From positions 64,001 through 128,000 of IMG/VR virus record IMGVR_UViG_3300027969_000042: 64,000 nt of DNA; one strand, given 5' to 3'. Of the stretch, positions 17,099 through 17,614 are shown piece by piece (within the stretch, counting starts at the first letter, position 1; each line of letters opens with the position of its first letter). The notes beneath the pieces were generated by a model, which ran no database searches, had not been told where the DNA came from, and worked only from the letters and a program-made list of their open reading frames with translations. Both the position numbers and the translations under genes were made by a program. The DNA is from a virus.

Positions 17099-17130
17099 AT
17101 TATTATTTTATTTTTATTTCGTTTTTTTGT

Positions 17131-17172
17131 AAAAAAAAAGACCAGAATTACATTTCTGTAAATCTGGTCTTA
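17131..17172 (-). terminator. Intrinsic terminator closing the ncRNA locus
   Basis: A-tract followed by AAGACCAGA...TCTGGTCTT; the U-tract falls on the minus strand. Confidence 0.7.
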
Positions 17173-17180
17173 TTATAATT

Positions 17181-17401
17181 TAGCAAACAAGAATATTAGC
17201 CTAAGCGACGCAAAGAATTCTACTTAACTTTGCCGATATTTAAAGTAACATCTCACTCATATTTTTAAAGGAAACTTATGAATTCCTGACTTTTCGACCA
17301 GAGGCAAGCGCTATTGCCCTTACATGGTAGCATAGAGTAGTCGTCTCTATACGTTCTTTCTGATAGTTGTATAATATACGAAGTATCTTAGAACTTTGCT
17401 A
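17181..17401 (-). ncRNA. Candidate long (about 220 nt) Y-like RNA
   Basis: Ends pair (TAGCAAA/TTTGCTA and CTAAG/CTTAG); internal hairpins at 17210-17233, 17270-17286, 17303-17318 and 17332-17350; no ORF; adjacent to Ro60. Strand is inferred. Confidence 0.55.
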
Positions 17402-17427
17402 TGTTTGCGTTTTTTTATAAATAAAAC

Positions 17428-17492
17428 CAGAGTAAGTTATCTTAGAGAGTTTTTTTGAATCCATATCGAAGTATCTCTATGATTTGCTACTG
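17428..17492 (-). ncRNA. Candidate short (65 nt) Y-like RNA
   Basis: Irregular hairpin with a bulged terminal helix and ATCATAGAGA/TCTCTAAGAT stem; shares AGCAAA-N6-AGATACTTCG with the long element. Strand is inferred. Confidence 0.55.
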
Positions 17493-17510
17493 ATTGTATT
17501 ATTGTATTAT

Positions 17511-17544
17511 TAAATTAGAAAAAGTTTAATCTTTTTCTAATTTA
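17511..17544. promoter_or_regulatory. Perfect 14-bp inverted repeat upstream of the ncRNA/Ro60 locus
   Basis: TAAATTAGAAAAAG-TTTAAT-CTTTTTCTAATTTA; all-AT except one GC pair. Confidence 0.4.
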
Positions 17545-17614
17545 TTTTATGTATATAGTAACCTTGAAAATTTCGCTTTTTTCCAAGGTGGATTTTTTAT
17601 AGTGTTCTAGAATG

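Follow-up and report, generated by a model that had tools for sequence, protein, structure and literature searches.

Y RNAs are thought to be modular adaptors, one end of which holds the protein Ro60 while the other picks a partner, and in nearly all bacterial and phage Y RNAs described so far this second end is a tRNA mimic. YrlA, the tRNA-mimicking Y RNA of bacteria and phages (PMC4201824; bioRxiv 10.1101/312249), is recognized by a location no more than 4 kb from Ro60 on the same strand, a 5' motif GNCGAAN0-1G that resembles the metazoan GGUCCGA contacted by Ro60, a YUAY sequence at about nucleotides (nt) 22-25 and a tRNA-like domain (PMC4201824). The second Y RNA is a plain hairpin in every species studied, and in M. 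smegmatis both Y RNAs lie upstream of rsr and are made with it as one precursor (PMC4201824). Among phages, Thermus phage phiLo carries two such RNAs, Yrl1 and Yrl2, upstream of its Ro60 gene; both bind Ro60, and a complex with host PNPase has been shown experimentally (PMC12135203). Here we compare these systems with a Ro60 locus in a 64,000-nt stretch of viral DNA, hereafter the window, which spans bases 64001-128000 of the 177.5-kb IMG/VR record IMGVR_UViG_3300027969_000042 (29% G+C; CheckV completeness 74%). We conclude that a gap directly upstream of this gene probably codes for a pair of non-coding Y RNAs, one small and one large, that belong to the Ro60 of the phage itself.

The Ro60 gene occupies positions 15650-17098 on the minus strand, with its ATG at 17098, and encodes a 482-residue protein with TROVE and vWA domains. 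Pfam places it in TROVE at 1.1e-18 and, less strongly, in vWA; PHROG 850 ('RNA-binding protein') is matched at 5e-44, and the closest solved relative of the protein is the Ro60 of phage phiLo (PDB 9KOP/9L5Y; E 1.3e-25), which aligns over residues 13-475, nearly the full length. Upstream of the ATG, no open reading frame (ORF) of at least 75 amino acids (aa) falls in positions 17099-17614 (516 nt), the longest such internal stretch in the window, and the ORFs that overlap it are only 20-40 aa long; the next-longest such gaps span 26186-26536 (351 nt) and 5070-5340 (271 nt). A coding role for the two RNAs and the terminator described below was considered and rejected, as the ORFs there measure only 20-28 aa and indels are not multiples of three. 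Within the gap, the motif AGCAAA-N6-AGATACTTCG is matched at 17379-17400 and at 17467-17488 and nowhere else in the window. Each match is on the minus strand; 0.04 would be expected by chance, and two matches arose in 0 of 100 shuffles. A wider module pattern finds these two copies only in the entire 177.5-kb record. They mark two elements arranged in tandem on the minus strand, which is the Ro60 strand, 85-395 nt upstream of the Ro60 ATG. An initial annotation, made from the letters of this DNA alone, had named the gene a phage Ro60, singled out the ORF-free gap and noted the motif shared by two elements within it; all of its sequence facts proved correct.

Among 50,697 deposited phage records, similar DNA was found in LR745206.1 only, a 634-kb uncultured phage in which the gap is 77% and Ro60 76% identical. 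A protein-guided scan of IMG/VR extended this set to 34 loci with Ro60 proteins 28-97% identical to that of the window (loci from our IMG/VR scans bear L numbers below). Both elements, in the same order and on the Ro60 strand, followed by the terminator and then by the Ro60 start, are present in 25 of the 25 loci whose Ro60 is at least 66% identical, namely LR745206.1 and 24 IMG/VR loci (66-97%). The initial annotation had named the Ro60-flanking regions of related phages as the place to look for covariation, and these alignments indeed hold abundant compensatory changes.

The small RNA (67 nt; 17427-17493, minus strand) is supported by an alignment of 22 homologues (A1), by RNAalifold and by a covariance model built from it (R1), which scores it at 77.7 bits. 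Along its 5' side, the terminal stem P1 (UCAG, 17493-17490) is followed by a bulged U (17489), AG (17488-17487), a CAA loop (17486-17484), the inner helix P2 (AUCAUAGAG, 17483-17475) and AUACUUCG (17474-17467), after which comes a variable apical part. The 3' side returns through P2 (CUCUAAGAU, 17447-17439), the loop AACUUA (17438-17433), CU (17432-17431) and P1 (CUGG, 17430-17427). The A1 consensus consists of a 4-base-pair (bp) P1, CCAG/CUGG, a bulged U, two invariant AG/CU pairs, an internal loop with YRA on the 5' strand and AAYUUN on the 3' strand, a 9-bp P2, (A/U)UACUUCG, a variable tip and an A-rich 3' strand. In this alignment 96% of cells are paired, and none of 500 shuffles equals the observed values; eight of the nine P2 pairs are changed on both sides, pairing is halved when partners are slid by 1-3 columns, and RNAalifold, run unguided, returns the same fold. 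The small RNA is a plain bulged hairpin, module only, in tandem with a larger Y RNA as in M. smegmatis (PMC4201824), and in this it resembles a minimal hairpin of the YrlB/Yrn2 type and the known pattern in which a simple hairpin serves as the second Y RNA. This comparison is one of architecture, Rfam having no YrlB model, and it also exposes a difference, in that the apex here has a 3-bp tip on an A-rich internal loop, as against a pyrimidine-rich loop in YrlB/Yrn2.

The large RNA (226 nt; 17183-17408, minus strand; alignment A2, 22 homologues) begins with P1 (GCAAACA, 17408-17402), a bulged U (17401), AG (17400-17399), the loop CAA (17398-17396), P2 (17395-17387) and AUACUUCG (17386-17379), and ends with P2 (17205-17198), the loop AAUAUU (17197-17192), CU (17191-17190) and P1 (UGUUUGC, 17189-17183). 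For the 41 pairs tested, 87% of cells are paired and 21 pairs show compensatory change, values reached by 0 of 500 shuffles. Support is strongest in P1 and AG/CU, where 99% of cells are paired and seven of nine pairs are compensatory: GCAAACA/UGUUUGC is replaced by GAGGACA/UGUCCUC, GACAAAU/AUUUGUC or AACAAACA/UGUUUGUU in other lineages, and AG/CU by GG/CC in four A2 sequences. The 8-bp P2, AGUUUGAG/CUUAGGCU, has changed on both sides in the lineage of L013, L016, L018 and L020. The pairings TAGAGA/TCTCTA and CTAAG/CTTAG that the initial annotation had reported in the two elements are real, and both sit within longer helices; its reading of them as covariation, drawn from two copies in one genome, was not covariation in the strict sense, but the relatives in A1 and A2 supply the true kind.

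The payload enclosed by this stem consists of helices Hv (17379-17369), Ha (17352-17330), Hb (17320-17302, inside a junction helix ACCA/UGGU), H5 (17287-17269), H6 (17258-17243) and H7 (17233-17210). Recurrent across A2 are a short hairpin starting from the G of UUCG, hairpin Ha and a hypervariable hairpin Hb, around which the junction helix is UACC/GGUG or UACU/AGUG; H5 is AAGGAA/UUCCUU or CAAGAA/UUCUUG, and H7 is capped by a GNRA loop in most relatives. Positions 17235-17258 form a candidate H-type pseudoknot in which S1 is GAGU/ACUU (H6) and the H6 loop GAUGUU (17252-17247) pairs with AAUAUC (17240-17235) to give H6b, with loop lengths of 2, 0 and 2 nt in the window. Four of the five H6 pairs are changed on both sides, and H6b is about 90% paired with three pairs changed on both sides (e.g. 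GAUGG/CAUC vs UAUGG/CUAUA). Because both helices covary, they fit a compact H-type pseudoknot, which the large RNA probably contains.

Alternative pairings of the large RNA were weighed against this model. On the 408-column large-RNA alignment RNAalifold returned only the terminal stem, a 4-bp UAGC/GCUA helix and parts of H6b and H7. UAGC/GCUA shows C-G to U-A changes and is mutually exclusive with the 8-bp P2; we kept P2, since it covaries (in the L013/L016/L018 clade) and matches the architecture of the small RNA, and regard UAGC/GCUA as a possible alternative pairing. We also observed that GAUAGUU (17394-17400) can pair with AACUAU (17362-17368), both of them conserved, about 40 nt downstream on the minus strand (A2 columns 16-21 and 61-66), in a helix that would preclude P2 and so suggests a conformational switch. 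This helix was not adopted: it is pairable in 85% of cases, shows no covariation and is equalled by 100 of 500 shuffles. A conserved GGUGAAAAAGUCC was considered as a T-arm remnant and dropped, as its GG covaries with an upstream UACC/UACU instead.

The initial annotation had held that pairing alone does not fix the strand, and for fold energy this stands, because the gap region folds better than shuffles both ways (z -4.1 on the minus strand, -3.6 on the plus strand). The comparative data, however, fix the minus strand as the functional one, given an excess of G-U over A-C cells, by 25:3 for the small RNA and by 75:36 for the large one, and a terminator whose U-run exists on the minus strand only. 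Tandem transcripts running antisense, from the plus strand, are extremely improbable and were rejected. The plus-strand fold energy is in their favor, as is a plus-strand CGAAG that recalls the 'CGAA' motif, but the G required two positions upstream of CGAA (GNCGAA) is not conserved on that strand, the G-U to A-C ratios favor the minus strand, and the distant YrlA/tRNA-like domains joined to the module, like the terminator, read correctly on the Ro60 strand only.

Both elements are built on one module, which runs from a terminal stem through a bulged U and the AG/CU pairs to an asymmetric internal loop with CAA on its 5' side, followed by an inner helix of 8-9 bp and AUACUUCG. Across relatives the 5' loop is YRA(W), the 3' loop is about 6 nt (AAYUUN) and (A/U)UACUUCG follows the inner helix invariantly. 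This arrangement is like that of YrlA in that it adjoins Ro60 on the same strand and has an end-paired long stem, an internal loop with a conserved 5' strand and an inner helix, after which YrlA has a conserved YUAY and these RNAs (A/U)UAC. The likeness becomes explicit through relatives, as the Rfam YrlA model (RF02553; 114 positions, gathering score 69 bits) is matched over its full length beside Ro60 at L023, L029, L030, L032, L057 and L068, and likewise at L031 and L034, all at sub-threshold scores of 34-53 bits (E 3e-9 to 1e-3). At L023, whose Ro60 is 54% identical to that of the window, the RNA starts with CUGGG-U-AG-CGA-UAGAAAAG-UUACUUCG, ends with CUUUUCUA-GAUUUU-CU-CCCAG and holds in between a variable arm, a T arm, an acceptor-like stem and a D arm; in the Infernal alignment its module falls on P1, the loop, P2 and the CUA of YrlA. 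The window module equals this L023 module part for part, which identifies it as a lineage-specific variant of the Ro60-binding module of YrlA. On this alignment the 5' loop YRA(W) appears to be the counterpart of the bacterial GNCGAA or 'CGAA' motif, such that UAGYGAW would stand for GNCGAA and UUAC for YUAY.

The differences from YrlA lie in both parts of the molecule. In the module, U-AG-YRA(W) takes the place of GNCGAAN0-1G, and UACUUCG is invariant after the inner helix; in the large RNA, the T arm, acceptor-like stem and D arm are missing, and their place is taken by other helices, about 180 nt in all, with a likely pseudoknot. The large RNA appears, from its sequence and covariation, to be of YrlA type with the tRNA-like effector replaced by about 180 nt of conserved helices. 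The initial annotation's proposal of one Ro60-type stem attached to a minimal and a large payload is borne out in these comparisons, as the module covaries in 22 homologues of each RNA, recurs at the base of the YrlA-matched RNAs and, in IMG/VR, associates strongly with Ro60. Its further suggestion of an atypical Y RNA class holds for the large RNA; the small RNA fits the known second-Y-RNA hairpin, and the phiLo pair is a precedent for the tandem arrangement (PMC12135203).

Several observations weigh against assigning these RNAs to Ro60. The initial annotation had proposed the Rfam Y RNA and YrlA models as a check, and neither YrlA nor Y_RNA finds a match in the window at E up to 10, nor YrlA anywhere in the record. 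No literal GNCGAA is present, the 5' motif being UAGCAAA in the window and UAGYGAW (AGCGAU, AGUGAA) in relatives. Both window RNAs have AUAC, the first base of which is not the pyrimidine of YUAY; in relatives the small RNA reads UUAC at nt 20-23, while the large RNA reads either AUAC or UUAC. In the large payload there is no T or D arm recognisable to ARAGORN or to the Rfam tRNA and YrlA models (E up to 10, 16900-17800), as the initial annotation had noted of canonical arms, so that no partner deduced from tRNA mimicry can be transferred to it. R1 finds no match in the Yrl region upstream of phiLo Ro60, and the link to the one experimentally tested phage system therefore rests on protein and architecture only. 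The phage is known from metagenomes only, and the position of the terminator, after the RNAs and before Ro60, would suit a leader or an attenuator as well. More broadly, ARAGORN detects zero tRNA genes in the window, and Rfam, searched at the gathering score across the window and at E up to 10 over 16900-17800, yields chance matches only, with no tRNA, T arm or D arm among them. The best permissive match, L20_leader (26.5 bits vs a gathering score of 58.7), was rejected because its alignment consists of the terminator hairpin and A/U-rich sequence.

The terminator, of the intrinsic type, is a hairpin with stem AGACCAGAUUUACA/UGUAAUUCUGGUCU and nine U (17131-17170, minus strand), placed after the long element as initially annotated, and it is predicted to supply the 3' end of the large RNA. 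Its stem GACCAGA/UCUGGUC and the U-run are kept in all close relatives; a strict terminator scan omitted it because the stem is poor in G-C pairs. Since it lies just 32 nt from the Ro60 ATG, directly upstream of the gene and on the same strand, the whole region could instead be a cis-acting leader of the Ro60 mRNA in which Ro60 binding to the modules controls termination at 17170-17131 as an autoregulatory attenuator. This explanation, which we consider unlikely, would be in keeping with the conservation of the terminator, with the single precursor that joins the M. smegmatis Y RNAs to rsr (PMC4201824) and with a spacer whose sole promoter-like site is a generic sigma-70 match (TTTACA-17-TAAAAT; the scan found fewer sites than shuffles). 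However, no conserved pairing that competes with the terminator was found, the candidate GAUAGUU:AACUAU helix being without covariation; about 180 nt of conserved payload helices far exceed the needs of an attenuator; and a leader cannot explain modules located downstream of Ro60 (L023, L032) or in tRNA arrays far from any Ro60 start. The leader and the pair of Y RNAs are compatible rather than exclusive; the terminator may have an autoregulatory role, but nothing supports one.

The 3' end of the small RNA (CUCUGGUC, 17427-17432) resembles the 3' strand of the terminator hairpin at 17139-17170, and in L017 and L028 the small-RNA stem and the terminator stem have both changed from CCAG/CUGG to UCAG/CUGA, for which gene conversion, cross-pairing and chance are conceivable causes. 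Anti-terminator cross-pairing with CUCUGGUC was treated as coincidence, the window having a change in the 5' strand of the small RNA only (U-G).

Beyond the close relatives, R1 finds like hairpins beside Ro60 genes of 27-50% identity, at loci that include L032, L041, L038, L140, L070, L057, L024, L023, L030, L034, L147 and L125. A reverse scan of IMG/VR by the pattern GTAGTGA-N6-14-TTACTTCG alone returned 120 stretches, and, although this loose pattern yields mostly chance matches, 13 of the 120 contain a Ro60 gene, as against 98 of the 50,697 deposited phage records. The payload type of the window's large RNA, which is not tRNA-like, is common to all 25 close relatives; a T-arm-like UAGGUUCAAUCUCUAACGAG, an 18/20 match to the T arm of L024, occurs in its hypervariable hairpin at L008 (2628-2916), and among the relatives such a piece is found only at L008 and L019, possibly left over from a tRNA-like domain or captured later. 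Elsewhere, modules stand in tandem upstream of Ro60, three in L041 (2690-3300), one of them with a different payload of about 300 nt, four in L026 (2486-2900) and five in L070 (2010-2620, minus strand). L024 has three in tandem, the third of which carries a tRNA-like domain in normal order, so that here the Ro60 handle replaces the acceptor stem, whereas in YrlA it extends the anticodon stem. We observed at L024 (2855-2975) the order D, anticodon, T between UACUUCG and the 3' strand of the module stem GAGAGGG/CCCUCUC, called tRNA-Tyr by ARAGORN and matched by Rfam tRNA at 52.5 bits over model positions 3-68. A further tandem array upstream of Ro60, at L147 (1770-3800, minus strand), is interspersed with small ORFs and tRNAs. 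A constant handle with a variable payload is what an adaptor RNA would be expected to show.

Ro60 and Y RNA genes also tend toward RNA-gene islands of large phages, judging from distant Ro60 loci at L031 (587-950) and at many positions of L034 and L035, which adjoin a phage transfer-messenger RNA (tmRNA; 88.9 bits) and long tRNA arrays. Some modules were observed in tRNA arrays with no Ro60 within several kb (L131, 2206-2274; L142, 7779-7975; L149, 4453-4520; L124, 2004-2086; L095, 3566-3680), as small hairpins, a T-arm-only form and YrlA-like forms. At L155 (7615-7760) a small element is followed directly by a GAUCAGAUU...UCUGGUCUUUUUU terminator as in the window, with no large element, and no TROVE gene was found in its 32.8-kb record, which has terminal repeats and is rated 67% complete. 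These loci, and the many Ro60 loci that adjoin tRNA arrays and a tmRNA, would suit a reading in which the elements belong to the phage's tRNA and small-RNA repertoire, as tRNA-derived decoys or processing elements that act without Ro60 and are linked to it by position alone. We consider this highly improbable. The five tRNA-array records are mostly fragments (3-14% complete), and two of the five hold TROVE elsewhere, one over and one just under the Pfam cut-off; Ro60 is very strongly enriched near the motif; and the module has the architecture of a known Ro60-binding site and is conserved while payloads vary, as expected of a protein handle.

With the two elements read as Y RNAs of Ro60, the locus can be set beside the phiLo system, which likewise has a phage Ro60 with two Y-like RNAs of stem-bulge-stem architecture directly upstream; in phiLo the bulge carries a CGAA-type motif, to which UAGCAAA of the window is a near-match. 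The Ro60 proteins are, however, only about 25% identical, and Yrl1 and Yrl2 were defined by folding prediction and not by covariation, with no large pseudoknotted payload reported (PMC12135203). Tandem Y-like RNAs upstream of a phage Ro60 are therefore already known, and the module is a variant of a known Ro60-binding module. What is new is a non-tRNA payload with a likely pseudoknot, the sharply conserved U-AG-YRA...UACUUCG and the reuse of one handle across payloads in environmental phages.

Metazoan hY and xY RNAs, which are polymerase III transcripts with a La-binding U tail, share with the module a terminal helix, one bulged pyrimidine in the 5' strand, two pairs, an asymmetric internal loop and an upper helix. 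A summary of the bulged helix is given in PMC12135203. The conserved sequences differ, GGUCCGA in metazoans and CAG-U-AG-YGA here, and homology is not demonstrable. Vault RNAs, in turn, are bound by TEP1, a TROVE-domain protein, and in them UUACUUCG adjoins polymerase III box A. Their layout runs from a terminal stem through CUUUAGCUCA and GCGG to UUACUUCG, a place comparable to that in the module, and this 8-mer is all that the human vault RNAs share with the window, where the copies of (U/A)UACUUCG lie at 17467-17474 and 17379-17386. It is present in human vtRNA1-1, 1-2 and 1-3 (PMC10087102). It is very unlikely that UUACUUCG, just after the inner helix of a bulged terminal stem with a UAG-containing internal loop, is an ancient signature by which TROVE-domain proteins at large recognize RNA; were it true, a single protein handle would be common to the Y-like RNAs of phages, YrlA of bacteria and the vault RNAs of eukaryotes. 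As the Vault model (RF00006) has no match in 16900-17800 at E up to 10, the sharing is probably a coincidence.

By analogy with D. radiodurans, S. Typhimurium, M. smegmatis and Thermus phage phiLo, the Ro60 ring would bind the module of each RNA, and the bound RNA would gate the RNA-binding surface and central cavity of the ring. The payload may then tether Ro60 to a partner, for which PNPase or another 3'-5' exoribonuclease of the host is the most plausible candidate, and the phage could in this way redirect the degradation or quality control of structured RNA in infection. Ro60 itself would probably be expressed by transcripts that read through the terminator, or else from a weak promoter within the 32-nt spacer. 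We offer more tentatively, as somewhat doubtful, the idea that with its pseudoknotted domain, as a Y-RNA effector module of a new class, the large RNA recruits some protein other than PNPase as its partner.

These observations add to known biology and do not overturn it. They describe a clade of large environmental phages in which the Ro60 handle is near-invariant and the payload is freely swapped, in one to five tandem copies, among a minimal hairpin, a lone T arm, a complete tRNA-like domain whose order is either permuted or normal and multi-hairpin forms of about 180-300 nt. With its natural range of payloads the clade lends itself to the question of which partner Ro60 is tethered to in infection, and it offers a sharply defined, testable handle (bulged U, AG/CU, YRA loop, UACUUCG), and R1 finds Y-like RNAs that the Rfam YrlA model misses.

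The genes near Ro60, a DNA methylase, a ribonucleotide reductase and unknowns, give no clue to mechanism. RtcB, sought as an RNA-repair partner, was not found in the whole record, and a search for a T4 Rnl1-type ligase carried no information, since its control gave no signal. In an alignment of the upstream regions, two further conserved minus-strand hairpins precede the small RNA, U1 (17589-17561) and U2 (17543-17512), with the conserved blocks ATCCACC and AAACTTTTT, which may be the upstream gene's terminator and/or promoter elements. The stem of U1, ACCUUGGAAAA/UUUUCAAGGU, is preceded by the conserved ATCCACC and has a U-run after it on the plus strand, so that U1 may be a bidirectional terminator. 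The loop block AAACTTTTT of U2 is conserved and has a TATA-like box after it, which is why U2 may be a promoter. A TATA-rich box was likewise observed 4-8 nt before P1 of every large element.

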